Positions 9,487 through 49,092 are shown, counted from the first letter of the stretch. The stretch is 55,141 nucleotides of DNA from Hyphomicrobiaceae bacterium UBA2767 (GCA_002352635.1 DEIT01000193.1:11545-66685), one strand, 5' to 3'. Translations and numbers: made by a program. The notes: a model not told the origin generated them from the sequence alone.

Positions 9487-9489
9487 ACT

Positions 9490-16740: not shown

Positions 16741-16780
16741 GCCATCTCACCTCTCCAAATATGCTAAGAGGCACTCGGTT

Positions 16781-23034: not shown

Positions 23035-23176
23035 GAACTCGCCTTTCGTTGGGGTGGGAGGAAGAGTACAATATAGAGGTCAATATGATATATTAATGAG
23101 TCATTCAGGATGAATCGAATCCTAATTGCAGTTATGCTCAGGATTTGATCGTGATTGTTGGGCAGGTAAATACGTT

Positions 23177-24563: not shown

Positions 24564-25337
24564 ATGACAAAAAGATTTTCTGGCCGTAAGGCCGTTGTCA
24601 CCGGAGGCGCCGGAGGGTTGGGCCGGGCAACTGCGGAATTGTTTGCCCGCGATGGCGCGGATGTGGCGATTTGCGAGATCGATATCGAGACTGCCGCCAA
24701 GACTGCGAATGAGATCTCTTCGGCGCATGGAGTCAAATGCATCGCCTCCGAGTGCGATGTCTCAAATTTCGAAAGCGTCGAGACCGCGTTCGGCGGCATC
24801 GCCGAGGATTTGGGTGGGCTCGATATTCTTGTCAACAATGCAGGCGTTACCCGCGACAATCTTATCTTCAAGATGTCAGATACAGACTGGGATACAGTCA
24901 TGGGAGTCCATTTGCGTGGCGCCTTTGCATGTTCTCGCGCAGCGCAGCGCATCATGGTCGATCAGAAGTTCGGAAAAATCGTCAATATCTCGTCGACCTC
25001 CGCACTCGGCAACCGCGGCCAAGTGAATTACTCAACCGCCAAGGCGGGTTTGCAGGGTTTTACGCGGACCCTCGCGCTGGAGCTTGGTCGCTTCAACATC
25101 AATGTGAATTGCGTTGCGCCGGGTTTCATTGACACGGAAATGACGCGCTCCACGGCACAGCGCCTGGGCATCGATCCAGAGGAATATAAACAGCAACGCG
25201 CCAAGAACATTGCGGTTCAGCGGGTTGGCGTGCCGCAAGATGTCGCCAATGTTGTCGCGTTCTTGTGCAGCGACGATGCGGGCTTTGTCAGCGGTCAGGT
25301 AATTTACGTGAGTGGCGGTCCGGAAACCCGCCGGTAG
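24564..25337 (+). CDS. SDR, FabG-like 3-oxoacyl reductase
   Basis: 257 aa. Motifs are VVTGGAGGLGRA, NNAGVTRD, and S..NYSTAKAG for the catalytic Tyr/Lys. Confidence 0.85.
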   Translation: MTKRFSGRKAVVTGGAGGLGRATAELFARDGADVAICEIDIETAAKTANEISSAHGVKCIASECDVSNFESVETAFGGIAEDLGGLDILVNNAGVTRDNLIFKMSDTDWDTVMGVHLRGAFACSRAAQRIMVDQKFGKIVNISSTSALGNRGQVNYSTAKAGLQGFTRTLALELGRFNINVNCVAPGFIDTEMTRSTAQRLGIDPEEYKQQRAKNIAVQRVGVPQDVANVVAFLCSDDAGFVSGQVIYVSGGPETRR

Positions 25338-25372
25338 ATTTCACTGTATTGAGTAACGGGAGGCATTGGAAA

Positions 25373-27079
25373 TTGACGGACGACTGGCGTACCAAGACAT
25401 TCTGGGATGCGCTCCAATGGGGTACTCGTGAACATGGTGACAGAGTCGCGATCATCGCGGGGACTCAGCGGACAAGCTTTAGTGAGCTTGCCCAGCGTGC
25501 ACGCGCTCTCGCCAGAGGTTTAATCGAACACGGAGTTCAGCCCGGCGACAATGTCGCATTGTGGTCGCCGGATTGCATCGAGTGGCTTGTAGCCCGGTGG
25601 GCGGTGCCGGCAATGGGTGCCGTCCTCGTGCCCATCAATACGCGGTTTCGCGATGAGGAAATCGGCTTCTTACTTTCACAAAGCCAATCCAAGGCGCTTA
25701 TCGTGTCGACCGGCGCCAAGGGCATCAATTATTTCGATATTCTTGAACAAATAGATCCTGAATTCCGGGGCTACCGTCCGGGTGACTGGGAGAGCGAGGT
25801 GTTTTCGAACCTTTCGCTTGTTGTTGGGATTGGTGATGACCTGCCGACAAGCGTCGTGCGGTTCGCCGATCTCGAGTCCGAAGGACGCACGCTGGCCGAT
25901 TGCGATGGCCTATTCGATGACTGCGCGCAAAAGATCACCGCGACCGATATCGCTCAGATAATGTACACTTCAGGCACAACATCTTTCCCCAAAGGCGCTC
26001 AGGTGCGCCATGGAGCGCTTCTCCAGAATAACTTCAACACGATTGCACGGATGAATCTTGGTCCAGAAGATCGTTATTTGGCGTCTGTGGCGCTTTTTAG
26101 CGCGACGGGTACATCGTTCACATTGTCTCCCTTTCTCGCAGGCGGTGCCATTGTTTTGATGGAAGACGGTTTCAGTGCCCAAAGGTTTTGTGAACTCGTT
26201 GAATCCGAACGCATTACAATGAGTTTTTATGTAGAGCCGATTGTCCGTGACTTGAAAAATTACGCAGGCCTTGCCGACCATGATCTGTCCACGTTGAGAA
26301 CAGGTACGGGGGCACCATTACAAAGTGAAACTTTCCGCTGGCTGGTCGAAGATCTGGGAGTCTCGGACCTGACGAACGTCTATGGTCTTTCGGAAACCTC
26401 CAATGCGACTTGTCGCAGCTTCTGGAACGACCAACTGGAAGACCGCATTGTGACGTGTGGTCATCCAATGCCGAACATTAAAATTCGGATTGCTGATCCC
26501 GAAACAGACAGAGAAATCAGTGGTGACGAAATGGGAGAGATCCAAGTGAACTCATATACGGTCATGCCTGGCTATTACAATATGCCCGATGAGACGGCAG
26601 CGACTATGACGGCGGACGGCTGGCTCAAGACCGGAGATCTCGGCACGATACGCAGCGATGGCCAGCTTATTTTCCGCGGACGCCTCAAGGAAATGATCAA
26701 GCCTGGCGGGTTCAACGTGGCGACGCTCGAAGTCGAGAGTTTCATCAAGAACATTCCCGGTGTGATTGAGGTTGCGATCGTTGGCGTTCCCGACGAACGA
26801 ATGGGCGAAATCGGCTACGCATATGTGGAAACAGCTACCAGCGCCAAGGTAGATGCGGACACCATTGTCAATTACTGCCGTTCGCATATCGCGAGCTACA
26901 AAGTGCCGCGCTACGTGGAGTTCGTGAAAGAGTGGCCGCTCACCGGCAGTGGAAAAATAAAAAAATTATCGCTTAGCGAACAGGCGAGACAACAGATCAG
27001 CGACGGCCAATCCAAGGATACTCACTCGATGGTCGCTGAAAACAGACAATCAACCTTAAAGGAGAAGACAAATGATTGA
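25373..27079 (+). CDS. Acyl-CoA synthetase (ANL superfamily) #4
   Basis: The likely start is TTG 25373, 9 nt after GGGAGG, since no in-frame ATG lies near the N-terminus. Motifs are MYTSGTTSFPKGAQ, VYGLSETS and GSGKIKK. Its stop overlaps the next ATG (27072) by 8 nt. Confidence 0.85.
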   Translation: MTDDWRTKTFWDALQWGTREHGDRVAIIAGTQRTSFSELAQRARALARGLIEHGVQPGDNVALWSPDCIEWLVARWAVPAMGAVLVPINTRFRDEEIGFLLSQSQSKALIVSTGAKGINYFDILEQIDPEFRGYRPGDWESEVFSNLSLVVGIGDDLPTSVVRFADLESEGRTLADCDGLFDDCAQKITATDIAQIMYTSGTTSFPKGAQVRHGALLQNNFNTIARMNLGPEDRYLASVALFSATGTSFTLSPFLAGGAIVLMEDGFSAQRFCELVESERITMSFYVEPIVRDLKNYAGLADHDLSTLRTGTGAPLQSETFRWLVEDLGVSDLTNVYGLSETSNATCRSFWNDQLEDRIVTCGHPMPNIKIRIADPETDREISGDEMGEIQVNSYTVMPGYYNMPDETAATMTADGWLKTGDLGTIRSDGQLIFRGRLKEMIKPGGFNVATLEVESFIKNIPGVIEVAIVGVPDERMGEIGYAYVETATSAKVDADTIVNYCRSHIASYKVPRYVEFVKEWPLTGSGKIKKLSLSEQARQQISDGQSKDTHSMVAENRQSTLKEKTND

Positions 27080-31619: not shown

Positions 31620-32465
31620 CTATAGTCTGTTGTAAGGACTGCTCCCGCATCGCTTGAGAATTTCAATGGGGGTTTCGAGGACGATCGCTTTGTAGAGGTC
31701 CTCGCTCAAACCCAACTCGCCAAGTTCGCTGAATTGCGCCGCAAGGTCGAAGAAAGGTGCTGTCGAGCCCCAGACTATCTTTTTTTTCAGCGGGCCCTGC
31801 GCGTATTTAAGCAGCACTTCCCAGCCTGACCCTTGAACCCCGTAGTATTTTGTGCGCTGGCCGGAGAGTTCAATGAACACGTTAGCGTGGCGCATTGCGA
31901 TTGACGTCATGTCGCCCACCCAGGGCCACCCTCCGTGACTCGCTACAATCACCAGCTGGGGAAAATCGATGGCCACTTGATCAAGATGGCAAGGGTGTCC
32001 AAGATTCATTGGACAATTGGAACTGAGCTGCGTGGAGGCATGGATAATGACGCCAAGGCCAAGCTCGCAACATTTCCCATATACCGGATAGTACTGACGG
32101 TCGCTCGCGGGCAGGCCCTCGCGGTATGGCGTCAGGCCGATCAAGCGCAAACCCATGTCGCACGCCTGATGCACTGTCTCAACCGCGTCCATGCAGGGCG
32201 ATGGTGAAATGTCTGCTATGCCAATGAAACGATCCGACTCACTGACAAGCGCTGCCAACTCCTCAAGCGGAGCGCCCGCACCCGTGACAACCTGCTGAGA
32301 TATCCCAAGCTCATCCAGGAGTTCGATATGTCCTTGGACAGAGGAACTCTTTCCATCGGACGTGAACGAGCGGAAATGCTTCGCGTAGGCACCGCGCTCT
32401 GCCAGCTTTTCCCGCGTGGCTTCGAGTGGCGCGAAGGCTCTGAAATCAATGCTCGTATGGTTCAT
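31620..32465 (-). CDS. Amidohydrolase-2 family (ACMSD-like metal-dependent hydrolase/decarboxylase TIM barrel)
   Basis: 281 aa. GVIIHAS...LGHPCHLDQVAIDFPQLVIVASHGGWPW...IVWGSTAPF fits the PF04909-type pattern. Its ATG directly abuts the rhodanese stop. Confidence 0.7.
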   Translation of the reverse strand: MNHTSIDFRAFAPLEATREKLAERGAYAKHFRSFTSDGKSSSVQGHIELLDELGISQQVVTGAGAPLEELAALVSESDRFIGIADISPSPCMDAVETVHQACDMGLRLIGLTPYREGLPASDRQYYPVYGKCCELGLGVIIHASTQLSSNCPMNLGHPCHLDQVAIDFPQLVIVASHGGWPWVGDMTSIAMRHANVFIELSGQRTKYYGVQGSGWEVLLKYAQGPLKKKIVWGSTAPFFDLAAQFSELGELGLSEDLYKAIVLETPIEILKRCGSSPYNRL

Positions 32466-34094
32466 TTAATCGTGACCATCTTTCTTGACGAGCTTTTCCT
32501 CCCAATCCAGATACTGCTGCATACCTTCTTGCCCCCTGGCGAAGGGTGGCAACACGAGGTCATCCGCTTCGGTCGGTCGAACGACACCTGTCTCGACAGA
32601 CAGTCCAGATTTTCTCCATGCTGTTAGTCCACCCTCCAGGAGGAAAGTGTTCGAGTATCCCAGTCCGACCAGGGTCGCATTCGCGAGGCAGGATTGACTC
32701 CCGCTGCGGCAGGTCACGAGGATAGCCGTAGTTTTACTGGCCGCTACGTTGCCGATGCGCTGCTCCAATGATCCGCGCGGCAGCCAGGTAGAGCCGGCGA
32801 TATGTCCAGATGAGAAGTTCTTGCTGTGGTCGACGTTGATGACGGTCATCTCTGGAGTTTCCGCCAATTGTTGTTGTGCCTTCTCCGGGGTCAAATGACG
32901 GCTGGTAGCCTTGGCCTCGTCCAGCCCCAGTGGGGCGGGGCGGCCGCGGCCTTTGTCAAGGCAGTTACCCGCTTCAACCCAGCCGTTCACACCTCCGCTC
33001 AGGATATGAACGTTCGGATACCCCATCCGGAGGAAATAGGAAGCCGTAACTATGGCGCGGCCTTCCCGGTCATCGATAAATACGATTGGCGCCATTTTGA
33101 CGGCGACGAAATCATCGGCCCGCTGTACCGCCTGACCGCCCGGTAAAGCCATGGTTCCGGGAATGTGGCCGGCCTGATAGTCCGCGAGAGGTCGTATGTC
33201 GAACACATAGGCATTGCTGTCGCCTCGTTTTCGCGCTTCGATTGCATCCATCAGAGCTTGCCTATCCATTGACGGAATGTTGGCATTTGCCGCGATTTTG
33301 GCGGCACGGTCCTCAAATACTTTGATGCTTTCACCTGACGGGTTGAAAGGTTCCGCCGAACCGAATTCGTCCAACTTATGTCCAGCCAGGATCCAGCCCA
33401 TTGTCCCGTTTTTCAGGGCGTAGACATTTTCGAGCCCAAGTTCACGAAGCGCTTGGCAGGCGATGATTGAGCGCGTCCGCCCGGCGCAATGGACAATAAT
33501 TGGCACATCGGCTTTCTCGAAGTCGCCGAGCGAGCGAGCTACATCGAAGCTGGGGGCCGGTCGTGAGTCTGGAATATGAGCGGCCTCATGTTCTTCCGGT
33601 GTCCGGATGTCACAGATCAGCATCGCTTTGCCCGAGTCACGCCAGGAGGCCAACTCTTCCGCTGTCAAATCCGGCACATTTTTTGAAGCGTGGAGGTTCT
33701 CGCCAAATAGTTTGCATGGCACGTTGGAGCCTTCGACCAGCGTATGCCCGGCCTCGCGCCATGCTGCGGCGCCACCGGACAGTACAAGCACATTCTTGTA
33801 TCCGAAGCCTCTTAGTGTCTGCAGGGCTAATCCCGCACGGTCGTCATCAGTGCCATTGTCGTACAGAACGATCAGGGTGCTTGGGTCCGGCACCAGTTCC
33901 GCGATGCGAAATTCGACAAGTCGCCGCGGCAGAAAAGTGGTCCCGCTTACATGTCCCTTTTCGGCCTCGCCAGCCTCGCGCACGTCAAACAAGGCATATT
34001 CGCTGTTCGACGACCTCAGCTTTTCCAGCTCAGGCACGGAAATAGCGTCGTTTGTGCTCGCAGGCCCTGCTTTCGAATCTGGTTGCCCCGTCAT
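32466..34094 (-). CDS. Four-domain rhodanese protein #2 (two catalytic Cys)
   Basis: 542 aa. The active-site loops read LYDNGTDD (Asp), VHCAGRTRS (Cys), FIDDREGR (Asp) and VTCRSGSQS (Cys). The C-terminal motif is YLDWEEKLVKK. The ATG shares a base with the upstream ligase TAA. Confidence 0.85.
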   Translation of the reverse strand: MTGQPDSKAGPASTNDAISVPELEKLRSSNSEYALFDVREAGEAEKGHVSGTTFLPRRLVEFRIAELVPDPSTLIVLYDNGTDDDRAGLALQTLRGFGYKNVLVLSGGAAAWREAGHTLVEGSNVPCKLFGENLHASKNVPDLTAEELASWRDSGKAMLICDIRTPEEHEAAHIPDSRPAPSFDVARSLGDFEKADVPIIVHCAGRTRSIIACQALRELGLENVYALKNGTMGWILAGHKLDEFGSAEPFNPSGESIKVFEDRAAKIAANANIPSMDRQALMDAIEARKRGDSNAYVFDIRPLADYQAGHIPGTMALPGGQAVQRADDFVAVKMAPIVFIDDREGRAIVTASYFLRMGYPNVHILSGGVNGWVEAGNCLDKGRGRPAPLGLDEAKATSRHLTPEKAQQQLAETPEMTVINVDHSKNFSSGHIAGSTWLPRGSLEQRIGNVAASKTTAILVTCRSGSQSCLANATLVGLGYSNTFLLEGGLTAWRKSGLSVETGVVRPTEADDLVLPPFARGQEGMQQYLDWEEKLVKKDGHD

Positions 34095-35479
34095 TAATCC
34101 GCTCCCCTAATCACGACAATTTTTGACTTTCCCGTCGTTCGTTCAAGGCCGCCATAGGCGAGCAACGAAACGTCCGTTCTCACGCTGAGTTTTTCGCGCA
34201 ATGTCAGATCAAGTTGTTCCTTGAGAGCGGGCCACGCGCTTTGCTCCACGCTTTGGGCGCATTCGACCTCCAGGTTCAAAGGTGGTTCAGCGACAGGGCC
34301 AGGACAATCCAGAATTATGCGTATCTTGCCCGTCGTCCTGGGCGCAAATGAGGAAATGACCGATTGTACGGCTGACGGGAAGACATTCATCCCGCGCACC
34401 AATAGCATATCGTCGGACCGGCCGATCAAATCGATGCGGAATCCTGTGCGGCCACATTCACACGACGAGGTGTGGACGCGTACGATGTCATTTGTACGGT
34501 AACGCAAGAGCGGACACGCCTCACGGTCGAGATGTGTAAATACATACTCTCCCACGGCGCCATCGCGTATCTCAATTGACTTGCCTGTGTCGGAATTGAT
34601 CAACTGAACCAGAACCAGATCACCTGTAACATGGTGTTTGCCGGAGCGAACGTAACAGTTTGTGAATGAATTCGGGTGCGCATCTGACGATGATGCAAGG
34701 TCAAAGATACCCTTTGTGCCAAAAGTTTCTTCAAGCTGTTCCCGCATTCCGGGCAGCTCAAAACCGGGCTCTCCGCCTCCGCACACAATGCGAAATCCCA
34801 GTTCGCTTGCCGGGATTCCGAGAACATCCTCACAACGTTCAGACAGATAGCTTGCAAATGAAGGCGTGGAGACGAGCACGGTTGCATCAAGCTCTTTGGC
34901 AATACGAAGCAGACCCTCAGCTTTCCTCTCCGTTCCGACAGGAATATTGACCGCACCCAGTCGTTCAATGGCCGTGCAGTATGGAACGCCGGCGTTGAAC
35001 ATACTGAGATTGAATCCATTGATTACCCGGTCTCCCGGGCGAACACCGAAACCCCACAGGACACGGCATACGCTTTCATCACGAAGTAAGACGTCTCGTC
35101 GTGTGTAAGTCTGCACAACAGCCCGGCCAGTTGTGCCAGCGGTGGTCGTCACGCGGATGAGCCTGTTGAACGGTGCTGCAACATGCCGGCCAAACGGCGG
35201 GGCCTCTTCCTGGCTTTCCCTCAGCTCGACCTTTTTGGTGAATGGCAATGACTCCAAATCAGATAATTCGCGAAAATCCCCGGGATTGAAGCCAGCTTCC
35301 TTGAAGCGCTTTTGATAGAACTTGGAATTTGCCTGCAGGTACGGAATTTGACGTTTGAGTTTCTCGATCTGGAGCTCCTGCAACTGATCCAACGGCATCG
35401 TCTCAGCTTCAGGATTCCAGTAAACCTCGTCAGGATCGTGCGCTTCACCGCACTCCATAACACCAGGGACCTGTTCCAT
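34094..35479 (-). CDS. PaaK / coenzyme-F390-synthetase-like adenylate-forming ligase
   Basis: 461 aa. QLQELQIEKLKRQIPYLQANSKFYQKRFKEAGFNPGDF...LPFTKK...TTTAGTTGRAV is the phenylacetate-CoA-ligase family layout. A GGAGGAAA SD precedes the ATG. Confidence 0.8.
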   Translation of the reverse strand: MEQVPGVMECGEAHDPDEVYWNPEAETMPLDQLQELQIEKLKRQIPYLQANSKFYQKRFKEAGFNPGDFRELSDLESLPFTKKVELRESQEEAPPFGRHVAAPFNRLIRVTTTAGTTGRAVVQTYTRRDVLLRDESVCRVLWGFGVRPGDRVINGFNLSMFNAGVPYCTAIERLGAVNIPVGTERKAEGLLRIAKELDATVLVSTPSFASYLSERCEDVLGIPASELGFRIVCGGGEPGFELPGMREQLEETFGTKGIFDLASSSDAHPNSFTNCYVRSGKHHVTGDLVLVQLINSDTGKSIEIRDGAVGEYVFTHLDREACPLLRYRTNDIVRVHTSSCECGRTGFRIDLIGRSDDMLLVRGMNVFPSAVQSVISSFAPRTTGKIRIILDCPGPVAEPPLNLEVECAQSVEQSAWPALKEQLDLTLREKLSVRTDVSLLAYGGLERTTGKSKIVVIRGAD

Positions 35480-35576: not shown

Positions 35577-36089
35577 CTATATCCAGGGTGCCGAACCCTC
35601 CCTGGCAATAAAGCAAAAAAGCGGGTCATCAGTGTGGTTAAATTTAGTGATTGCACCTATGACAATGAGATGATCACCCGCAATGTGCTCGGACACCGTT
35701 TTGCATTGGAACGAGGCGATAGTCTCAGGAAGTAGGGGCACCTTAAGTTCGCCCAATTCGTAGTCGATTCCCGCAAATCGATCACTAATTTTCGCACAAA
35801 AACGCGTAGCCAGATCGCGCTGGTGCGTTGAGAGCACGTTTACTGCAAATCGCCCCGCTTTGCGGAATTCTTCGAGGCTTCGCGACATGTGATTTATGCT
35901 CCAAAGCACCAGAGGCGGATCAAGTGATACGGAACTGAACGAGTTGACGGTGAGGCCGATCGCACCTCCAGTCCGGTCACAAGTAGTGATGACTGTTACG
36001 CCTGTGGCAAACCGGCCAAGCGCCTGCCGAAGTTGAATCATATTGTTTTTGGCAGAGGGCAAATCACCCGAGTGCCCGTTCTTTTTCAA
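35577..36089 (-). CDS. NAD(P)H-flavin reductase #2 (HpaC-type)
   Basis: LRQALGRFATGVTVITT...GLTVNSFSSVSLDPPLVLWSI...GDHLIVIGAI. The track start is TTG 36089, and ATG 36041 is an alternative. Confidence 0.8.
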   Translation of the reverse strand: MKKNGHSGDLPSAKNNMIQLRQALGRFATGVTVITTCDRTGGAIGLTVNSFSSVSLDPPLVLWSINHMSRSLEEFRKAGRFAVNVLSTHQRDLATRFCAKISDRFAGIDYELGELKVPLLPETIASFQCKTVSEHIAGDHLIVIGAITKFNHTDDPLFCFIAREGSAPWI

Positions 36090-36120: not shown

Positions 36121-37287
36121 CTAGAGTCGGGCCGTGGTGTCGAATTGGAGCCCCAGGGCTGCTTGCCCTACCGTGGCTGCTGTACGATCCATGTTTTCGT
36201 GAAGTGTATGAATACGTAGATCCCGGAAAAATCGGCTGAGAGGTGCGTCAGCGAGGAATGCACTAGAGCCAGCGATTTGCGCTGCTTTGTTCATGATGAT
36301 GACAGCATTCTCGATAGCCCGGTGTTTGGATTTCATCGAATATAGCTCGGCTTCCTGTAAGTCGCCCTGGGACCAGAGCCATGCGGCGCGATAAATCATC
36401 CAACGCACTGAATCTATACCGATACAGATTTCTCCCAGCCGCAGCTGCGTGTATGAATCTCCGCTGGTTCCCCGTTTGGGCAAATATTCAATCAGCGTAT
36501 TGTACACGCCTTCCGCGCCACCAAGATATTGCGCCGCAAATCCCAAGTGGAATCTGGCCTGCCAGCGATCATTGGGATACACACCGGGTTCCCCAAGAAC
36601 GTAATCGTCGGATACGAAACAATTATCAAGCTCCAGGTTAGGGCTTGTTGCTCCGCGCATCCCCATCGGATCCCACGATCCGTCAATGACCCTAAAACCC
36701 TTTGTATTTTTTGGAATTGCGACACCGATATGCCCTTCAGGTGGCGGAATATCCTTCCGTCCCGCGAACACGATGTTGAACTCGGCCTCAGCGCCGAGGG
36801 TCGCGTAATTCTTCACCCCATTGAGGCGATAACCACCCTCCACGCGTTCCGCTTCCGTAATAAGTTTGTATAGACCCCGTGATGTTCTGCCCGGTTCGCT
36901 ACCCGTTGCGTTTAGCAGGGCGCCACGCTCGATAACCGGCGTGAGGATGTTCTTGCGTTGTTCGGGCGTGCAGACCTGATCGACATAGTGACAACCATGC
37001 GCGTGAATATGCAGGCATTGGGCCGTCGACATGCAGGCCGATGCTGTCTGTTCCACGGCGAGCAGATACAGGAGGGGGTCTTTCCCCATGGCGCCGCTTC
37101 CGGCGCCACCCAGATCCTCGGAAATCGTCAATGCCAGATGGCCGCCTTCAAACAAATCCTGAAGGTTTTCGATCGGTGTGGACGCATCGCGATCATACTT
37201 GGCCGCCCGCTTGGCAAATTTCTCTTTCGCAAGCGCGCCTACTTCTTCGTAGACTTTTTCTTGCTGCGGTGACAGGCGAAAATCCAT
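36121..37287 (-). CDS. ACAD-fold protein, DszC/SfnB-like, paralog 2
   Basis: I start it at ATG 37287 (MDFRLSPQQEKVYEE), which aligns with paralog 3 (MDFELDKHHQEFQEK). Motifs are AQCLHIHAH, KNYATLG, WDPMGMRGATSP and a C-terminal RDLRIHTLHENMDR, which resembles the R-x-H-[ST]-L-H-[DE] tail I associate with DszC-type enzymes. Confidence 0.65.
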   Translation of the reverse strand: MDFRLSPQQEKVYEEVGALAKEKFAKRAAKYDRDASTPIENLQDLFEGGHLALTISEDLGGAGSGAMGKDPLLYLLAVEQTASACMSTAQCLHIHAHGCHYVDQVCTPEQRKNILTPVIERGALLNATGSEPGRTSRGLYKLITEAERVEGGYRLNGVKNYATLGAEAEFNIVFAGRKDIPPPEGHIGVAIPKNTKGFRVIDGSWDPMGMRGATSPNLELDNCFVSDDYVLGEPGVYPNDRWQARFHLGFAAQYLGGAEGVYNTLIEYLPKRGTSGDSYTQLRLGEICIGIDSVRWMIYRAAWLWSQGDLQEAELYSMKSKHRAIENAVIIMNKAAQIAGSSAFLADAPLSRFFRDLRIHTLHENMDRTAATVGQAALGLQFDTTARL

Positions 37288-37338
37288 ACGTGACCCCTTG
37301 TAAAAAAACGACTTCGTGGTGGTAGGCAAGCGCCGAGC

Positions 37339-37366
37339 TTGATTTTGGTAGAGCTTAAGATATAAT
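37339..37366 (+). promoter_or_regulatory. Sigma70-like promoter TTGATT-N16-TATAAT for the LysR gene
   Basis: I counted the hexamers and the spacer directly. It lies in the 146-nt divergent region between 37287 and 37434. Confidence 0.4.
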
Positions 37367-37433
37367 ACAAATATCCAAATTTTATCAATTCGATGCCTTT
37401 TTGGCATGCGTTGCGATCGTCACGGGTGAGAAG

Positions 37434-38360
37434 ATGCTTGATCTGCGAGCGTTGCGCTATTTTGTGCGTGTGGCGGAAATGAAGAGCGTTTCAAAGGCGG
37501 CAACCTCACTCTATATCGCTCAGCCGGCCATCAGCCGGCAGATCAAGAAGTTGGAGGATCAGATCGGTGTACAGTTGCTCATCAGGTCGGGCCGCGGGAT
37601 CGATCTTACGGATGCCGGAGCGTTACTGGAGATTCACGCGAGAGAGGTTCTCGAAAGACTGTCCGTAATCCACAACGATGTCTCGGCTTGCGTGGACGAG
37701 GCCAGGGGGTTGGTCAGGCTGGCCGTATCGCCTGCTGCGGGCCGCATTCTCGCTCCACCACTTGTCATGCAAATGGCTTCATGTTTTCCTGAAGTCTCCT
37801 TGAGAGTATTGGAGAGCTTTACGAGCGTAATCCATGATGGGCTGAGATCGAAACGGTTTGATCTCGGTGTGCTTCACGATCCGGGTGATGCTCTTCACCT
37901 GAAGACCGAAACTCTCCTGAATGAATTGCTTTTTGTGATTGGCCCCGGAAACCGGAACTCCAATGCTGACCCACTCCCTCGAGAGTATCGCCTGAAGCAG
38001 CTGGAGAAGCTCCCGCTAATTATGCCGGTCGCTCCAAACCAGCTGCGTGTTGTTGCCGATAGCATTGCGGCAACAAACAAAATTACATTCAATATCGTTG
38101 CTGAGGTCGACAGTATCCCCATCATGAAAGCGCTCGTGGAGGAGGGCTTTGGCTACACACTTCTCAGTTTCGGTTCCGTCCATGAAGAAGTGGCGCGCGG
38201 TGTCCTCACTGCTGTACCGATTCCAGAGGTAGAGCGGAAGTTGGTGGTTGCCTGGAACATTGAGCAGCGTCTGACCAACGCGGCAAGGGAGACCATAAAG
38301 ATTCTACACGAAAACGCATCGTCAATGGTGCGGAAGGGGAAATGGCGCGGTTCGCTCTAG
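37434..38360 (+). CDS. LysR-family transcriptional regulator
   Basis: MLDLRALRYFVRVAEMKSVSKAATSLYIAQPAISRQIKKLEDQIGVQLL is a canonical LysR HTH. It is divergent from the DszC-like/flavin reductase/ligase/rhodanese operon. Confidence 0.9.
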   Translation: MLDLRALRYFVRVAEMKSVSKAATSLYIAQPAISRQIKKLEDQIGVQLLIRSGRGIDLTDAGALLEIHAREVLERLSVIHNDVSACVDEARGLVRLAVSPAAGRILAPPLVMQMASCFPEVSLRVLESFTSVIHDGLRSKRFDLGVLHDPGDALHLKTETLLNELLFVIGPGNRNSNADPLPREYRLKQLEKLPLIMPVAPNQLRVVADSIAATNKITFNIVAEVDSIPIMKALVEEGFGYTLLSFGSVHEEVARGVLTAVPIPEVERKLVVAWNIEQRLTNAARETIKILHENASSMVRKGKWRGSL

Positions 38361-38433: not shown

Positions 38434-39840
38434 TTAACCCGCAAATTTATAAGCCTTATCTCCTTGCAGGATCCGCGGGAACAGAGCCTGTACATTATCC
38501 AGGCTTTCCAGCGTGGCAATCATTTGCATCATGCGCGAGTGCTGGTCCGATGACAGGGCAAAATGCCCACGCGATATGCATTTAGCTATCTTGTTCTCGA
38601 ATTTCGCGTCCGATAAGGGCGTTTTGGGAGAACCGGGAACGCCATCAATGCGCCGGCTGTGTGTCTTGCCGTCCTGCATAGTGACTGAAACCTCCGCAGG
38701 CGTTAGCCTGCCTGTTTCATCGGTATAAGTCGTCACCTCGACCCGGTTCGCCAGCGACCCTACATCTGGCGCCGTGACCATTTCGGGAAGAATATCTGCA
38801 ACACCGAACTCTCCACGCAACAAGACGGCCGCCACAGCATAGCGGACGCTGAATTGTCCGCTTACTGTCGGATTTTCAGAAGGATCGAACGGCTCGCCGA
38901 CAAGCCGGTACATATACGGTGTAATGGATACATTAATCTTGCTGATCTCATCGGCTTTGAATTGTTCATTCTCAACCAACGCGAGCGTGGCCTCAATAGC
39001 CGCGTGGCTGCACGCGCAACATGGATATTCTTTGAAACTCGTCCTGGTTATCAGATAGTTTTCGCCAAAACCATCGAGTACAATTTCGGAAACCCCGTGC
39101 TCATACATTGAGAAAAGGCCGAATTTTCCATCGATAGCTCCTACTGGACCGCGAAGTCCGGCGGATGCCAGCAAGGCAGCTTCCACGCCCGCCTGCGCTG
39201 CGAATGCCGACTGCATTCGTTTGGTTGAGGCGCGCTCTATATTTGGCTGCTGTGTGCCCGCCACCCTGCTCATGACTATGGATATGGCATCGCGGATACC
39301 ATCCTCACCCAGACCCAGCAGCTTCGCCGCCGCGACTGCAGCGCCAAAACATCCGAATATAGAAGTATAGAACCAGCCCGTGTGGTCTTGTGCCGACAAG
39401 CCCAGCCGGCTGGCTATCTCAGTGCCCAGAGCAGCCGCCGCGAGTAATTCCTTGCCACTGCTGCCTTGGCGTTCTGCTATCGCGAAAGCAGCAGGCAAAA
39501 CACAAATGTCCGCATGCACCAAAGCGTCACCCTGAAGGCTATCAAAGTCCAGTGCGGCAGCTAAGATGCCGTTGGCAAGTGCTGCATAACCCGCTGGCGC
39601 TTTGCCGCCAACAGCCCACACCGTACTGTCCTCTCCTGCCGCAAAATTGACAACAAACGGGACAAGCTGGGCGACGTCGGCATGTTCAGTCGCCGCCCAG
39701 GACACCGCCAAGGTGTCCAAGACGGATTTCTTCGTGGTCTTTATGACCTCTTCAGGGAGATCATCAAAGTTTACGCGCGCAACCAGTTTGGACAGTGAAA
39801 CTGAGAGCGGGTCCTGATGGGCTTGTGTGCTGCCGGTCAC
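38434..39840 (-). CDS. MmgE/PrpD-family protein (2-methylcitrate dehydratase / cis-aconitate decarboxylase superfamily)
   Basis: 468 aa. LSKLVARVNFDDLPEEVIKTTKKSVLDTLAV and the overall length fit the PrpD family. The GTG start shares a base with the upstream ACAD TAG. Confidence 0.75.
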   Translation of the reverse strand: MTGSTQAHQDPLSVSLSKLVARVNFDDLPEEVIKTTKKSVLDTLAVSWAATEHADVAQLVPFVVNFAAGEDSTVWAVGGKAPAGYAALANGILAAALDFDSLQGDALVHADICVLPAAFAIAERQGSSGKELLAAAALGTEIASRLGLSAQDHTGWFYTSIFGCFGAAVAAAKLLGLGEDGIRDAISIVMSRVAGTQQPNIERASTKRMQSAFAAQAGVEAALLASAGLRGPVGAIDGKFGLFSMYEHGVSEIVLDGFGENYLITRTSFKEYPCCACSHAAIEATLALVENEQFKADEISKINVSITPYMYRLVGEPFDPSENPTVSGQFSVRYAVAAVLLRGEFGVADILPEMVTAPDVGSLANRVEVTTYTDETGRLTPAEVSVTMQDGKTHSRRIDGVPGSPKTPLSDAKFENKIAKCISRGHFALSSDQHSRMMQMIATLESLDNVQALFPRILQGDKAYKFAG

Positions 39841-41003
39841 TATTTTCTGCTGAGCCCCATGAATTCTTTGCCCAGAAGTTCCCGGACGACGACCAATTTC
39901 ATCACATTGATCGTGCCGCCGGTGAATGCGAGACCCATGACATCTCGGAGGCGGCGCTCAACGTCAAGATCTTTCAGGTATCCGCTGGCGCCATACATCT
40001 GCAGGCAGCTCCCGACCGCCTCAATTGCCGCTGTTACACCATGCCATTTTGACATGGTCGCTTCGCGCGCCGCATCTTCACCCCGGACATTTTTCCAAAG
40101 ACCCTTGTAGGCTAACAGCTTGCATGCTTCCATTTTTGTATAGTGCTCGATTAGAGGGAATGAAACGGCTTGGTTCATCCCGATCTTCCGGCCGTAGACT
40201 TCTTTTTTCTTCACGAACTCGATTGTCTCGTCCAGGACCGCCAGGGCGGTGCCAATAGCATTGAGAGCACTTAGGCAGCGGGTTACATTCCAGCGCGCAT
40301 ACATCAGCGCCTTGCCATCCTTGATGTTATCTCTGTCTTTACCCAGGGCGCTGTCCAGCGGCACGCGGACATCCTTGAACCCGACGCGTCCAAGTTGATG
40401 GGACCGCATGCCCATTTCGGGCATGATTTCACAACTCACGCCTGGCGCGTCTGAAGGCACTTTAAGAAACTCCATTCGAGTCTTGCCATCATCAGTGGGT
40501 ACCATCACGCTGACACCCATTACCGAAGCACCAGGCATTAGGCTCACGTGGATTTTCTCCCCGTTAATGACATAGTCGCCATTGTCGATGGTTGCCGCCG
40601 TAGAAATATTGGAAACATCAGACCCGGCATTCTCCTCGGACGTGGCGATACATACGAGCTTGTTGCCTTTATAGACTTCGCGGATATCATCCTCGTCCCA
40701 ACCTGGCGTCAATGTGGTCAAGGTGTTCTGCATGGAACAGATCATGGCGCAGCTGGAATCCGTGCGAGCAAGCGTTTCAATAACTATGCCAAGTGAGATG
40801 TAATCCAGGCCCTTGCCTCCGAGTTTCTCCAGACCGATCATGCCCAACAAGCCAGCCTCTCCAAGCCCCTTGATCGCTGACCAAGGCATCTCTTCCTTTT
40901 CGTCCCATTCTTTTAGACCCTGTTTAACCTTGCTTTCCGCCACTTTCTGGACAAATTCACGCAATTCCTCCTGTTTATCCGTAAACCCAAAATCCAATGC
41001 CAT
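39840..41003 (-). CDS. Acyl-CoA-dehydrogenase-fold protein lacking both canonical catalytic Glu positions
   Basis: 387 aa and clearly ACAD-like (SEENAGSDVSN; GMRSHQLG; VSFPLIEH). The MCAD-Glu376 position reads F-T-G-G-T, and the IVD-Glu254/MCAD-Thr255 position reads N-V-T-R. Confidence 0.8.
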   Translation of the reverse strand: MALDFGFTDKQEELREFVQKVAESKVKQGLKEWDEKEEMPWSAIKGLGEAGLLGMIGLEKLGGKGLDYISLGIVIETLARTDSSCAMICSMQNTLTTLTPGWDEDDIREVYKGNKLVCIATSEENAGSDVSNISTAATIDNGDYVINGEKIHVSLMPGASVMGVSVMVPTDDGKTRMEFLKVPSDAPGVSCEIMPEMGMRSHQLGRVGFKDVRVPLDSALGKDRDNIKDGKALMYARWNVTRCLSALNAIGTALAVLDETIEFVKKKEVYGRKIGMNQAVSFPLIEHYTKMEACKLLAYKGLWKNVRGEDAAREATMSKWHGVTAAIEAVGSCLQMYGASGYLKDLDVERRLRDVMGLAFTGGTINVMKLVVVRELLGKEFMGLSRK

Positions 41004-41050
41004 TGCTCAAACCCCTTCTTAAAGTCGAAATACTTGAAACGAATTCCCCG

Positions 41051-42928
41051 TCAGGCGGTCACGAGTTTTTTGGATAGAAATACCTGATTCACAAGACAGG
41101 GGATCAAAAGTCCAAAGCCAACGAGCCAGAAACGCCAATCGGGCAAGATAATTAGAACACCCGCTATGAACATCGCCGTGCGAACGAGGGGTGAAGCCGA
41201 CGCCATCCAATATCCGGCCATAGATGCTGCCACAGCCGAAATTCCGATTAGTGCAAAAGTGAAAGGAAGGATGAAATCATAAGCATCCCCCTGAAGGAGC
41301 AGGGCCGGATGATAAACGAACGCGAATGGAATAATAAAGCCAGCGATAGATAGCTTGAATGCTTCGATGCTTGTAGCCGCAGGGGACGCCTTGGCCACGC
41401 CGGCGGCGGCATATGAAGTAATAGCCACCGGAGGCGTGACCCCGGAGATGATCGCAAAATAGAATACAAACATATGCGCCGCGAGCGGGATAACGCCCAA
41501 ATCGATAAGGGCAGGGGCCGCAACGGTCACCGAAAGGATGTAGGCCGGCGTCGTCGGCATGCCCATGCCCAAGAGAATAGACGTAAGCGCCACCATGGCC
41601 AGACTTAGGAAAAGCATGCCATTTGCGGAACTGACAATCATGCTCGAAAAAGCGAGGCTGAGACCGGTGGCGGTCAGAGCACTCACGACAAGACCAGCCG
41701 CCGCGCAGGCAATTGCAATCAGAATCGCAGACCGCGTTCCGGCCGCCAGGACATCACACAACCTGCGCGGCGTCATTCTGGTATCTTTGCGCGCAAAGCT
41801 AACTATGAACGCTGCAATGGTCCCGGCAAGAGCCGCTTTAACCGGCGTGTAACCCAGCGACAACACCAACAGCATGGATAGGATAGGAAGGAGATAGTAG
41901 GAGCGCATCAAAGCCTTTGACCGGCTCGGCAATTTGCTCTTCTCTACCGGGTCTATCCCGAGCCTCCGCGCTTCCAGATGCACGACCATTCCCACAGCCA
42001 AAAAGAACAGGATGGCAGCGGGAAGCGCCGCGGTGATCAGCTCGATATACGTCATGCCGAGCAACGCCATCATGATGAAGACAGACGCGCCCATAACCGG
42101 AGGCATGATTTGACCGCCGGTCGAGGCGGCCGCCTCCACCGCGCCAGCAAAGGCCGGCTTGTAACCCATGTTTTTCATCAACGGAATTGTGTAAACGCCG
42201 GTGCCATAGACATTTGCAGTCGGGCTCCCGCTGATGGAGCCGAACATGGCACTGTTGATGACAGCGATTTTGGCGGGTCCTCCGACCTTATGGCCGACCA
42301 GTGCTTGCGAAATCTCCGCGAACCACTCGCCAACTCCGCAACGCTCCACAAATGTGCCAAACATGACAAACAGAAACAGGTAAGTAACGGAAATCCCCGT
42401 CAGTGAGCCGAAAATCCCCTGGTTCTCAAGCACGTACATTCGCTCAATTGCCCGGCTCAGAAAAAATCCTCGATGACCTAAAGGGCTTGGCAGGAAATGT
42501 CCAACAAGCAGATAGACAACGGATGCAGCGACGACAATTGCCATGCCGATACCGATGACCCGCCGGGCTGCTTCCCACACCAGGACGGTAGCGAATACGC
42601 CAAAAATCACCTCGATGTTCTGTATATCCGAAACGAGTTCGAGCCTGTTGTTCAGCTCTTCGTAATGCAAAGCCACATAGCTGGTAACGATGAATGCGGT
42701 CGCCGCGAGAATAAAATCCAGAACCGATGGCCATTCCTTCGGAGACAGCGTCTTGGTGGCCGGAAACAGAATAAAAACCATCGGCAGTAGTAAGGTAAGA
42801 TGCAGTGCCCGCGCCAATCGCAAATCAAGAACGCCGACACTGCCGAGCCAAAAGTGAAACAGAGCAGTGCCTACGAGGGCGACAGTTACAGCAATGCCAA
42901 ACGGACCTTTGAAAGTGCGCATCTTCAT
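41051..42928 (-). CDS. TRAP transporter, fused 4TM/12TM permease (TAXI-associated type)
   Basis: About 625 aa and very hydrophobic. It lies immediately downstream of the TAXI receptor gene. I start it at Met 42928 or 42922 rather than the track start at 43018. Confidence 0.8.
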   Translation of the reverse strand: MKMRTFKGPFGIAVTVALVGTALFHFWLGSVGVLDLRLARALHLTLLLPMVFILFPATKTLSPKEWPSVLDFILAATAFIVTSYVALHYEELNNRLELVSDIQNIEVIFGVFATVLVWEAARRVIGIGMAIVVAASVVYLLVGHFLPSPLGHRGFFLSRAIERMYVLENQGIFGSLTGISVTYLFLFVMFGTFVERCGVGEWFAEISQALVGHKVGGPAKIAVINSAMFGSISGSPTANVYGTGVYTIPLMKNMGYKPAFAGAVEAAASTGGQIMPPVMGASVFIMMALLGMTYIELITAALPAAILFFLAVGMVVHLEARRLGIDPVEKSKLPSRSKALMRSYYLLPILSMLLVLSLGYTPVKAALAGTIAAFIVSFARKDTRMTPRRLCDVLAAGTRSAILIAIACAAAGLVVSALTATGLSLAFSSMIVSSANGMLFLSLAMVALTSILLGMGMPTTPAYILSVTVAAPALIDLGVIPLAAHMFVFYFAIISGVTPPVAITSYAAAGVAKASPAATSIEAFKLSIAGFIIPFAFVYHPALLLQGDAYDFILPFTFALIGISAVAASMAGYWMASASPLVRTAMFIAGVLIILPDWRFWLVGFGLLIPCLVNQVFLSKKLVTA

Positions 42929-43045
42929 CCACCAAGTTTTTAAGGTGAGGCAGTCGCGCTGCTTGGCCGACCGGGAAGGGGTGGAGTAAGGGGGCTGCAG
43001 TCGGCGGGAGAGGAGCAAACATCTCCACTCCCGCGCTGCCGTCGA

Positions 43046-44059
43046 CTATTTGTAGTCGTAACCCTTTTCCTTGAAATACCGCTCGGCGCCCGGGTGCAGC
43101 TTGATGTTGCCGCGGTGCTTGGCCTTGACGATATTCTCCGGAATGAATGTCTTCATACTCGGATGGATCTTCCGCACTTTGTCCGCATTTTCGAACAAGG
43201 TTTTGGTGAAGTTGTAGACCACTTCTTCGGGAACGTCCTTGTTAACAATAAGCCCCGATGCCATGGTGAGTGTCGGAAGATCCTTTTCCAGCGGGATGTT
43301 TTTGTAAGTATCCTTGGAAATAACACCGCGCCCGTACCCATACGCCTTGACGACTTTGTCAATCGTCTCTTTCGACAAGGGTAGGAATTTCAGATCACGC
43401 ACCGTAGAAACTTCAAGAAGCGTGGGGGCTGGGAGTTGCAGAAGCGTCATGATCATATCGGCCTGACCGTCGCGGACCAGATCAGCTTGCTTCGAGTGAT
43501 TGGCCTGATAGTGGGCGCCACCGTTTGCCTTCAGCTTGTCGACTGAACTGCCAACGGACTCGATCAGCTTTTTGACGGTAAACCCACCCATGGTTTGCAG
43601 ACCGGGGGTCGCTATTTTGGCAGGGTAATTCTTCTCAAAGATCTCCTCGAAGGTATTCAGCGGAAAATCCTTTTTCGCGACGACCTGATAGAAAGTTTCG
43701 TTGAAGCCAAAAGCGATGGCGCGTATGTCCTCATATTTCTTCTTGTAGGGATCATCGCCTATCATCGCCATTTCGGCCGGCACCGTAAGAGACATTCCTA
43801 TATCGGCGTCCTTTGAAGCGACGCGCGGAGGATTTACCAGGCCGCCGCCAGGGATCACCTTGATATTGAGGTCCGAGCCCTGTTTCTTCACGATATCGGC
43901 GATGCCGCCTGAAATCAGATACCAACCCCCCCCAACAGGGCCACCCATCATGGTCAACTCCGCTGCCATCGCGGACGTTGAGAGTCCGGCAGCAAACAGG
44001 CCCGCGGCAATTGCCGTTCTCAATGCACTGAATTTCCTTGGATTTTTCAATTTTTCCAC
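43046..44059 (-). CDS. TRAP transporter solute receptor, TAXI family
   Basis: 337 aa. The signal peptide is ...AAGLSTSAMA/AE. MMGGPVGGGWYLISGGIADIV and VIPGGGLVNP are typical TAXI motifs. Confidence 0.8.
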   Translation of the reverse strand: MEKLKNPRKFSALRTAIAAGLFAAGLSTSAMAAELTMMGGPVGGGWYLISGGIADIVKKQGSDLNIKVIPGGGLVNPPRVASKDADIGMSLTVPAEMAMIGDDPYKKKYEDIRAIAFGFNETFYQVVAKKDFPLNTFEEIFEKNYPAKIATPGLQTMGGFTVKKLIESVGSSVDKLKANGGAHYQANHSKQADLVRDGQADMIMTLLQLPAPTLLEVSTVRDLKFLPLSKETIDKVVKAYGYGRGVISKDTYKNIPLEKDLPTLTMASGLIVNKDVPEEVVYNFTKTLFENADKVRKIHPSMKTFIPENIVKAKHRGNIKLHPGAERYFKEKGYDYK

Positions 44060-47871: not shown

Positions 47872-49092
47872 TTAATCCGCTGGCGTGCCGGCGACAATTC
47901 CGGCGTCAAACAGTTTTCCGATCTCATTCGCCGACAGTCCCAACACATCTGACAGTACGGCTTCGGAATGCTCGCCAGGCAAGGGTGCTGCCGGCACGTC
48001 TCCACGTGGGAACGCCTCGAAATCAAGAGGTATGTGCGGGGCCAGATGCGGGCCGATACCAGGTTGGTCAAGCCGGCCGAATAACGGGTTATCCAACGAG
48101 CAGCGTGAATCCTCGGTGGCCAGTTGTTTGAATGTCTGGAATGGGCCCCACAGCACACCCGTGCCGGAAAATACACTGCGGATTTCGTCCAGGGTGCGGG
48201 CCTCAAACCACGGTTCGAGAACAGTCGAGATTGCATCGCGTGCATGGTAGCGGCCGGCCTCATCCGACAAGTCGGCGCCGGTGTTATCCTGCAACGCTTG
48301 CATCTGCTCGTTCGTTTCCGTCGCGTCGCACATCGCCCGCCATTGTTTGTTGGAGATGCCCGTCACCATGACACGCCGTCCATCGGCTGTTGCAAAATCC
48401 CGGCCGAAGGCACCGAAGACCTGGTTCCCGAGTGTCGGGCGGGGCTCGTCATTTATCTGTGCTTCACTCAGATAGCTGAGGTTTCCGACCGTTGCCAGCA
48501 TGACATCAGCGAGCGTGATGGTGATGGTCTGGCCCTCGCCCGTGAGGCGGCGATGGCGTTCAGCGGCAAGGAGGCCCGTCGCCAGGTAGAGCGACGTGGA
48601 TATATCCCAAATAGGGGCAACGTGATTAGTGGGTTGTGCGCTATTGCCGGTAATGTCGGGAAAACCACTCGCACAGTTAATCGTATAGTCGACGGCCGTC
48701 GAGCCATCGGGGTTTCCAAAAACCTGCAAGGCAATCAGGTCGGGGCGCAATTTCTTGACCTCCTCCGTCGCCATTGGTCCTTTCAGCGGCAGGTTACTGA
48801 GAACAATTCCACCACCATCACCGGGGCTTCCGGCCATCAATTGCGCCGCAAGGTCACGTCCCTCCGGCTGCTTTAAATCGATGCGGATTGACCGTTTGGC
48901 CTTGTTGATGGCGGGATAATAAAGGCTGTTCCCGTCCTTCGTGTGCGGCCAGCGGTTTTCGTCCATGCGTCCGGAGATGGGATTAATCTGCACGATGTCC
49001 GCGCCCAGCTGTCCCAGCGTCATCCCACATAAGGGCGCGGCAATGTATGCGGATATCTCAGCCACGCGCAGACCGTCAAGGATGCCTTTCAT
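47872..49092 (-). CDS. Family III CoA-transferase (CaiB/BaiF) #2
   Basis: 406 aa. LDGLRVAEISAYIAAPLCGMTLGQLGADIV has the CaiB/BaiF N-terminal layout. The general look is that of the 2-methylfumaryl-CoA isomerase / mesaconyl-CoA transferase-like subgroup (low certainty). Confidence 0.75.
   Translation of the reverse strand: MKGILDGLRVAEISAYIAAPLCGMTLGQLGADIVQINPISGRMDENRWPHTKDGNSLYYPAINKAKRSIRIDLKQPEGRDLAAQLMAGSPGDGGGIVLSNLPLKGPMATEEVKKLRPDLIALQVFGNPDGSTAVDYTINCASGFPDITGNSAQPTNHVAPIWDISTSLYLATGLLAAERHRRLTGEGQTITITLADVMLATVGNLSYLSEAQINDEPRPTLGNQVFGAFGRDFATADGRRVMVTGISNKQWRAMCDATETNEQMQALQDNTGADLSDEAGRYHARDAISTVLEPWFEARTLDEIRSVFSGTGVLWGPFQTFKQLATEDSRCSLDNPLFGRLDQPGIGPHLAPHIPLDFEAFPRGDVPAAPLPGEHSEAVLSDVLGLSANEIGKLFDAGIVAGTPAD

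Follow-up and report, generated by a model that had tools for sequence, protein, structure and literature searches.

We analyzed a 55,141-nucleotide stretch of DNA from Hyphomicrobiaceae bacterium UBA2767 (GCA_002352635.1 DEIT01000193.1:11545-66685), hereafter the window, with positions counted from its first letter. Our subject is a run of four minus-strand genes at positions 38,434 to 44,059, which encode a two-gene transporter, a protein of the acyl-CoA dehydrogenase (ACAD) fold that carries no known catalytic acid, and a member of the MmgE/PrpD family. We term the last two proteins ACAD0 and PrpD-X. In the order in which they are read, the genes are:

43046..44059, minus strand: TAXI-family TRAP solute-binding protein with a signal peptide (NCBIfam TRAP_TAXI, TIGR02122, 138.8 bits, cut-off 84; Pfam NMT1_3)
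41051..42928, minus strand: fused DctQM-type TRAP permease (NCBIfam TRAP_fused, TIGR02123, 606.7 bits, cut-off 321)
39840..41003, minus strand: ACAD0, ACAD-fold protein of 387 amino acids without a known catalytic acid (three ACAD Pfam domains)
38434..39840, minus strand: PrpD-X, MmgE/PrpD family (PF03972, 181 bits; PF19305, 99.5 bits)

This order had been proposed in a first-pass annotation of the sequence, and it holds for all four open reading frames (ORFs) and their Pfam and NCBIfam assignments; the NCBIfam models identify both the TAXI solute-binding subunit and the fused DctQM permease of a TAXI-TRAP transporter. The described overlap of the last two genes is likewise real: the junction reads AAA TAG TGA CCG, so that the TAG stop of ACAD0 (39842-39840) and the GTG start of PrpD-X (39840-39838) share one base at 39840. 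A strong Shine-Dalgarno sequence, AAGAAGGGG, lies ahead of the ATG of ACAD0. The permease ORF is open from a TTG at 43018 (41051-43018), 90 nt outside the ATG at 42928; because the TRAP_fused match starts at residue 42 of this longer frame, and given the position of the ATG, the latter is the likely start. The TAXI protein is only distant kin to the TAXI proteins of solved structure (E 1e-21), and therefore no ligand can be read from it. A scan for promoters and terminators returned signals no better than those in shuffled sequence.

ACAD0 has the fold of the ACAD superfamily, with its helical N-terminal, beta middle and helical C-terminal domains, as PF02771, PF02770 and PF00441 all matched above their cut-offs. 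In HMMER alignments to ACADs of solved structure, its FTGGT segment pairs with (I/L)YEGT, and Gly362 is therefore the equivalent of Glu376, the catalytic base of medium-chain acyl-CoA dehydrogenase (MCAD). The WNVTR segment pairs with helix G, which puts Thr241 at the alternative base position of isovaleryl-CoA dehydrogenase (IVD). Both assignments had originally been made by eye, and both stand, as does the claim drawn from them that neither canonical base is present. Indeed, among 120 homologues of 50-81% identity, Gly362 is invariant, Phe360, Thr361 and Gly363 are nearly so, and position 241 is Ser or Thr; the invariance of Gly362 excludes chance or a sequencing error. No Asp or Glu occurs in ACAD0 residues 83-102, 236-250 or 355-372, and thus no shifted acid is hidden nearby. 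A third base position is known from Asp91 of Ch1DH (PDB 7p98), in which the MCAD-type base is lost (Thr363) (PMC9293079); at this site on helix E, ACAD0 has no acid within residues 83-102 and the family conserves none. Finally, comparing alignment columns between the 120 homologues and 128 general ACAD representatives revealed no family-specific conserved acid anywhere, and hence no sign of a conserved Glu displaced by a few residues, the outcome that the first-pass annotation had named as fatal to its own reading.

ACADs that lack this Glu form several subfamilies, namely IVD (alternative Glu), the 3-sulfinopropionyl-CoA desulfinase (AGG), IaaF (GGG), CaiA (SGG) and Pim (YGG) (PMC8360864); base-less ACADs as such are already known. 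Among the full-length ACAD homologues aligned from the source genome, three oxygenase-type paralogues aside, an acid is absent at both positions only in ACAD0 and in the genome's true desulfinase. The genome's own IVD-type paralogues show NAER at the place of the helix-G base.

The family is marked by residues gained as well as by the acid lost. His152, His202, Lys231, Tyr235, Arg237 and Cys243 are each at least 95% conserved among the 120 homologues, whereas Ser/Phe, Ser/Leu, Phe/Leu, Met/Leu, Thr/Gly and Ile/Val, respectively, occupy these positions in the 128 general ACADs. In a FastTree phylogeny of 80 sequences, a single clade with 99% local support holds the base-less proteins; its sister is an Asp-type clade, and Arg237 and His202 are found in 26/26 base-less rows and in almost no others. 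His152, Lys231 and Tyr235 mark the closer family, which consists of two groups, clades A and B. The next relatives (P0124-P0127, 36-42% identity) have Gln, Asn or Gly at the base position, and beyond them lies a shell of cyclohexanecarboxyl-CoA-dehydrogenase-like proteins at about 30-34% identity with Asp (xGDGT). The homologue search covered 1.8 billion cluster representatives at 50% identity, and similarity to the family drops off quickly. On this evidence, the base-less clade arose from Asp-type (GDG) ancestors by loss of the acid, with Tyr-Glu turning into Thr-Gly, and this loss and the gain of cationic and His residues happened together, once, and were maintained since; it is a functional family and not a decayed gene.

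The FAD-type motifs are intact. ACAD0 keeps ATSE...AGSD, Ser154 at the position of MCAD Thr168, and Thr364. The T/S-E and AGSD motifs, Ser at the MCAD Thr168 position and Thr364 bind FAD in ACADs, and ACAD0 probably still does so. Its AlphaFold2 model (pLDDT 87, pTM 0.89) has the standard ACAD fold and, in a Foldseek search against the PDB, matches ACADs of solved structure at TM-scores of about 0.87-0.90, the desulfinase no more closely than the dehydrogenases. The ESM Atlas label is just "acyl-CoA dehydrogenase family". Among longer proteins, we found no ACAD0-PrpD or ACAD0-rhodanese fusions, only distant double-ACADs of 24-28% identity, a result that counts as weak evidence; P0090 (497 amino acids) resembles a C-terminal frameshift, not a fusion.

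Three groups of characterized ACAD-fold enzymes invite comparison. The first-pass annotation had drawn attention to the 3-sulfinopropionyl-CoA desulfinase of Advenella, AcdDPN7 (PDB 5af7/5ahs), which resembles ACAD0 in combining the ACAD fold with the absence of an acid at the MCAD and IVD positions (AGG/GGG). There is likeness also in the genes beside that of AcdDPN7, which specify a LysR regulator, an enzyme that activates with CoA, a thiol-oxidising enzyme and receptors for carboxylates, and in its ties to organosulfur catabolism. The relation is nevertheless not one of orthology. ACAD0 scores 156.5 bits on the 3-sulfinopropanoyl-CoA desulfinase model (NF042439) against a cut-off of 600, whereas a true orthologue of 641 bits is encoded elsewhere in the same genome (contig C172:4921-6051; L007:1528-2727); ACAD0 is about 25% identical to the latter, and branches with the Asp-type dehydrogenases rather than with desulfinases. 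Where the two true desulfinase orthologues in our alignment read TARIV, NGQR and GGG, ACAD0 reads CAMIC (Met87), NVTR (Thr241) and TGG. Met87 stands in place of an Arg, represented in AcdDPN7 by Arg84, reportedly an active-site residue on helix E. As a separate observation, a desulfinase orthologue above the cut-off occurred in 39/301 sampled genomes of the class, the source genome included, and the enzyme is therefore far more widespread than the Advenella and Variovorax literature suggests.

The second group, the cyclohexanecarboxyl-CoA dehydrogenase type with its GDG motif (TIGR03207), gave the best NCBIfam match of ACAD0, at 206 bits far under the cut-off of 575, and corresponds to the sister clade. 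Here too the Tyr before the base has given way to a small residue, a trait also of enzymes whose substrates are alpha-substituted, and Ch1DH shares with ACAD0 the loss of the MCAD-type base. ACAD0, however, has neither the Asp of the GDG motif nor the helix E acid of Ch1DH. The third is the benzylmalonyl-CoA dehydrogenase IaaF, which has GGG for YEG and oxidatively decarboxylates an alpha-carboxy acyl-CoA; the leaving of the anionic alpha-substituent has been proposed to take the place of a base (PMC8360864). Compared by motif and context alone, IaaF and ACAD0 both have small residues in place of YEG, but the motif is TGG in ACAD0, and the iaa-operon context (mutase, hydantoinase-like genes) is absent around it.

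PrpD-X, the partner encoded directly downstream, has the N- and C-terminal domains of the MmgE/PrpD superfamily and scores 56 on the 2-methylcitrate dehydratase equivalog, against a cut-off of 950. Its best relatives of solved structure are iminodisuccinate (IDS) epimerase (PDB 2hp0/2hp3) and cis-aconitate decarboxylase (E 2e-39 and 1e-35, respectively). Aligned with IDS epimerase and numbered accordingly, PrpD-X keeps Asp88, His99, Lys198, Lys266 and His275, whereas His85 is replaced by Ala, the segment with Tyr145 is deleted and His150 is replaced by Phe. The single His base and the two Lys that stabilise the enolate are thus retained. With the second base missing, PrpD-X is unlikely to be a two-base epimerase; as far as the alignment can tell, it more probably acts on a C4-dicarboxylate-type acid with one base, by elimination, decarboxylation or tautomerisation. 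The signature AAALD[FY]D plus H[ST]GWFYTS is common to all 14 ACAD0-linked homologues long enough to align.

The adjacency of an ACAD and an MmgE/PrpD protein had been likened to a pair "of unknown role" in the Pseudomonas itaconate cluster. This description is outdated, since roles have been assigned to the pair in 2025: PA0879 is an (RS)-methylsuccinyl-C4-CoA dehydrogenase, PA0881 an (S)-(R)-methylsuccinate isomerase (PMC12290011). The two pairs are alike in gene adjacency, in C4/C5-dicarboxylate-type substrates (presumed for the window pair) and in the Asp, His, Lys and Lys with which the PrpD protein binds carboxylate and stabilises the enolate. The window operon, in contrast, has no Ict, Ich or Ccl genes, and PrpD-X departs from the two-base site of PA0881 (His102 and Tyr148, with His88, His152, Lys202 and Lys266): Tyr148 is deleted, His152 is Phe and His88 is Ala, while His102, Lys202 and Lys266 are kept. 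Moreover, a canonical-looking itaconate/methylsuccinate cluster is present elsewhere in the same genome (L020:2086-7160, contig C253), with genes for a PrpD protein in which every residue of the His/Tyr/His/Lys/Lys site is kept, a MaoC/mesaconyl-CoA hydratase, a GEG-motif ACAD, a CoA-transferase III and an enoyl-CoA hydratase, beside a divergent GntR gene. We thus rejected an assignment of the window pair to the itaconate-cluster type: its ACAD lacks the base, its PrpD protein lacks the second-base Tyr and two His, and the genome has a canonical-type cluster of its own.

Several further observations concern these families. In the canonical-looking cluster, no lyase was seen before the contig end. 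A CoA-transferase III gene in the window (47872-49092) reaches 444 bits on the 2-methylfumaryl(mesaconyl)-CoA isomerase model, whose cut-off is 725, and is not conserved beside ACAD0 elsewhere. The source genome contains 11 MmgE/PrpD matches in 4.1 Mb. A third ACAD-PrpD neighbourhood (L021:366-11888, contig C223) comprises two intact PrpD paralogues, an IVD-type ACAD, an FAD_binding_2 protein, two flavoproteins of the old yellow enzyme type and a CoA-transferase III; one PrpD gene in it appears to be broken into two ORFs that overlap, one for the N- and one for the C-domain (9541-10614 and 9257-9838), perhaps through a frameshift.

To place the four genes in context, we scanned 185,579 species genomes with the family alignment and recovered 37 loci (L022-L057 and L063) and a fragment (L081). 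Seventeen loci from five orders, 56-68% identical to ACAD0 of the window, constitute clade A. Their hosts are Allopusillimonas, Candidimonas, Pusillimonas, Bordetella and Lautropia metagenome-assembled genomes (MAGs), Sneathiella, Pseudolabrys and other Hyphomicrobiales, other Burkholderiales/Betaproteobacteria MAGs, and one Eremiobacterota MAG. A gene of the PrpD-X subfamily is present in 16/17 clade A loci; in 10 of them, as in the window, it stands immediately downstream of a copy of ACAD0. An oxygenase-type ACAD homologue (62-69% identical to the product of window 36121-37407, termed ACADmo1) and a PaaK-like ligase were found together in 14/17, and a four-domain rhodanese in 11/17. Further frequent neighbours are a flavin reductase, a short-chain dehydrogenase/reductase (SDR), an aconitase-X-type dehydratase, a CoA-transferase III, and TAXI-TRAP or TctC receptors. 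In the Alcaligenaceae-type loci L025-L031, a rhodanese homologue is directly downstream of an ACAD0 copy, and the Lautropia and Bordetella loci encode two base-less paralogues, one adjoining PrpD and the other adjoining the rhodanese.

In the Sneathiella loci (L024, L028), a LysR gene on the minus strand is followed by oxygenase, ligase, rhodanese, TAXI, TRAP, ACAD0 and PrpD, all on one strand. In the window, the Sneathiella gene set is divided between two minus-strand modules that flank the LysR gene. The regulator and the second module are laid out as follows:

37401..38360, plus strand: LysR-type regulator, between the two minus-strand modules (Pfam HTH_1 and LysR_substrate)
36121..37407, minus strand: ACADmo1, ACAD-fold protein of the oxygenase type (Acyl-CoA_dh_2; DszC/SfnB/HsaA-like)
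35577..36089, minus strand: flavin reductase (HpaC/C1-type)
34094..35479, minus strand: PaaK-like adenylate-forming CoA ligase (222-239 bits on PaaK models, under their cut-offs)
32466..34094, minus strand: four-domain rhodanese (four Pfam Rhodanese matches)
31620..32465, minus strand: Amidohydrolase_2 protein, last gene of the rhodanese module (Pfam Amidohydro_2)

The four genes with which we began are thus half of a two-module set that recurs as a unit in distant bacteria, and both modules are probably controlled by the LysR gene between them. That the transporter-ACAD-PrpD operon might connect to the rhodanese genes of the island had been offered as a guess; with the synteny conserved and the rhodanese present in 11 clade A loci, it has become the best-supported part of the first-pass annotation. 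The gene set also occurs in the cultured Variovorax sp. SRS16 (plasmid 4) and in PBL-E5. The SRS16 locus (L088; NZ_LR594669.1 8192-37334), from a linuron-degrading Variovorax, has the whole set. Its ACAD-fold gene is accompanied by an AMP-binding ligase additional to the annotated phenylacetate--CoA ligase, a rhodanese with a second ACAD-family gene after it, an SDR, ACAD0, a PaaK gene, PrpD, two flavin reductases, an amidohydrolase and TctC receptors in large number. The family as a whole is broadly yet patchily distributed. A sample of 400 genomes from the window's class, with only four candidates scored in each, yielded no further clade member at E <= 1e-100, which fits a horizontal spread of the cluster. 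In the literature searched, we found no paper on this combination of genes.

Clade B comprises about 20 loci, 48-52% identical to ACAD0 and mainly from Comamonadaceae and other Burkholderiales. Its gene order is a divergent GntR regulator, ACAD0, CoA-transferase III, a sulfatase bearing the formylglycine motif (C-x-P/A-x-R), TctC and aconitase X, with an enoyl-CoA hydratase and a second sulfatase upstream. The cassette was seen at L038-L055 (e.g., L041:3747-10878), with one or two sulfatases, in MAGs of Polaromonas, Rhodoferax, Ramlibacter and other Burkholderiales. The clade B sulfatases are a second, independent association with sulfur.

What might ACAD0 do without a base? Tentatively, and at a probability that we place somewhat below even, we favour a role in the non-canonical processing of an anionic, sulfur-substituted acyl-CoA in which a sulfur leaving group takes over the function of the missing base. 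In this scheme, the TAXI-TRAP transporter would import an organic acid with one or more extra anionic groups and a sulfur substituent; a CoA ester would be formed from this acid, and the oxygenase-type ACAD, served by its reductase, would oxygenate the substrate sulfur. ACAD0 would retain the thioester oxyanion hole, formed by the backbone NH of residue 362 and a ribityl hydroxyl of FAD, and the Thr-Gly-Gly cavity next to C-alpha, together with the new cationic residues, could hold an anionic leaving group such as a sulfinate, sulfonate or sulfate. Departure of this group, not a protein base, would drive carbanion formation or elimination. The leaving group would be a sulfur oxyanion, or less likely CO2, the rhodanese would handle the released sulfur species, and PrpD-X would act on the free C4-dicarboxylate-type acid as a one-base enzyme, not as an epimerase. 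Such a mechanism would be analogous, we infer, to those of the 3-sulfinopropionyl-CoA desulfinase and the decarboxylating benzylmalonyl-CoA dehydrogenase.

A sulfur leaving group is favoured because of the repeated association with a rhodanese, an S-oxygenase-like two-component enzyme and sulfatases. As for the substrate, ACAD0 keeps the conserved Arg242, and the normally hydrophobic stretch before helix G now carries Lys231, Tyr235 and Arg237. The replacement of hydrophobic residues by these three makes a polyanionic, dicarboxylate-type substrate plausible, as the first-pass annotation had supposed.

Several points weigh against this proposal. Because Met87 and Thr241 replace the Arg and Gln of the desulfinases, a desulfinase-like mechanism in ACAD0 would have to use other residues. 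The presumed location of His202, Lys231, Tyr235 and Arg237 near the substrate derives from their positions in the sequence. The links to the rhodanese and the sulfatases are guilt by association, and both families also have non-sulfur roles. A small polar dicarboxylate is not what a PaaK-like ligase would usually be expected to activate. Lastly, locus L032 has ACAD0 and PrpD-X with the other genes of the set absent within 10 kb.

Of the competing explanations, the one that survives best, if still an unlikely one, is that ACAD0 is a true alpha,beta-dehydrogenase of a di- or tricarboxylyl-CoA that passes electrons to electron-transfer flavoprotein (ETF) and employs an unconventional base, be it His202, Tyr235 or a free carboxylate of the substrate. 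The intact fold and FAD-type motifs, the new conserved His and Tyr residues, and the beta-oxidation-like company of a CoA-transferase and an enoyl-CoA hydratase in clade B all suit such an enzyme, and the ACAD base has already been relocated twice, in IVD and long-chain acyl-CoA dehydrogenase and at Asp91 of Ch1DH (PMC9293079). The acid loss of ACAD0, however, coincides with a cationic gain and not with the gain of another acid. The Trp/Phe position beside the flavin, which serves ETF transfer in MCAD, is His152, although the aromatic residue is missing from the Asp-type sister clade as well. We also know of no ACAD with a His or Tyr base, which further counts against this explanation.

We consider it less probable still that ACAD0 is an IaaF-like decarboxylating dehydrogenase of an alkylmalonyl-type acyl-CoA, with loss of CO2 replacing proton abstraction. 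The GGG enzyme IaaF works in this way (PMC8360864), the TGG of ACAD0 gives a similar cavity, Arg242 would be free to bind the alpha-carboxylate, and acyl-CoA carboxylase genes were annotated elsewhere in the window in the first pass. Those carboxylases, however, are not conserved beside ACAD0 in other loci, mutase and iaa-type genes are missing, and the rhodanese and sulfatase associations would go unexplained.

Slightly lower again is our estimate for a second flavin-dependent oxygenase or oxidase component, which would work with O2, perhaps aided by the flavin reductase next to it, and would be neither a lyase nor a dehydrogenase of CoA esters. The Glu is likewise missing from ACAD-fold monooxygenases, DszC and HsaA among them, flavin reductases belong to the cluster (two in Variovorax), and His152 and His202 are new in ACAD0. 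The C-terminal domain of ACAD0, however, fits Acyl-CoA_dh_1 (101 bits) better than Acyl-CoA_dh_2 (42), the protein groups with true CoA-ester dehydrogenases rather than with the window's oxygenase paralogues (21-22% identity), and no flavin reductase was noted among the recurrent clade B neighbours.

A catalytically inert ACAD0, serving as a binding, scaffold or regulatory subunit, for instance of a heteromeric ACAD, is very improbable. Heterotetrameric ACADs with a Glu-less subunit do exist, in the mycobacterial FadE pairs and PimCD, and Lautropia and Bordetella encode two ACAD0 paralogues, but both of these are base-less, most loci have a single ACAD0 with no base-bearing ACAD partner, and the strongly conserved new polar residues point to an active site. 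Least of all do we credit a divergent methylsuccinyl-C4-CoA dehydrogenase/methylsuccinate isomerase pair, for which speak the gene adjacency shared with itaconate clusters (PMC12290011) and the mesaconyl-CoA isomerase-like CoA-transferase 4 kb away: the residue tests largely refute it, as the base of the ACAD and the Tyr148, His152 and His88 equivalents of PrpD-X, proposed to be catalytic or ligand-binding, are gone, the operon has no itaconyl-CoA hydratase or lyase, the CoA-transferase is not conserved in other loci, and the genome keeps its separate cluster with a GEG ACAD and a complete PrpD site.

The remainder of the island is a very dense region of acyl-CoA and flavin genes. At 13449-18391, 25265-27079 and 23126-24310 lie three AMP-binding ligases in tandem and, at some remove, a fourth, along with a nitronate-monooxygenase-like gene, a pair of the thiolase/DUF35 type and a RibBA fusion. 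At 3706-7850, there is a second string of ACAD, hotdog, multi-domain rhodanese and alpha-beta hydrolase genes; its ACAD reads YGG at the MCAD position, yet the Glu of the IVD type is there (NAER), and it is thus not base-less. Rhodanese genes therefore adjoin acyl-CoA genes twice in the island.

Taken at its widest, the sulfur reading would make ACAD0 the representative of a new class of ACAD-fold flavoenzymes. Using a His/Lys/Tyr/Arg pocket and no protein base, these would take a sulfinate, sulfonate, sulfate or persulfide (for instance CoA persulfide) off an anionic acyl-CoA, by cleavage or by transfer, and pass the sulfur to the four-domain rhodanese. With the S-oxygenase, the PaaK-like ligase and the one-base PrpD-like enzyme added, this would form an undescribed CoA-dependent pathway for a sulfur-substituted di- or tricarboxylic acid. 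We regard this full version as possible, though doubtful. Few ACAD-fold enzymes without a catalytic acid have been characterized, and each brought new chemistry (desulfination, oxidative decarboxylation, 1,4-dehydrogenation). The clade described here is a conserved one: it spans more than 120 sequence clusters and is recognizable by a clear signature of residues and by the partners that recur beside it. This partner set links the two operons of the window into one unit and brings together two orphan groups, one being the four-domain rhodanese cluster and the other a subfamily of PrpD proteins that lacks the epimerase Tyr. Since one carrier, Variovorax sp. SRS16, is in culture, genetic work is feasible, and the gene set offers a testable entry to an uncharacterised pathway, probably for organosulfur acids.

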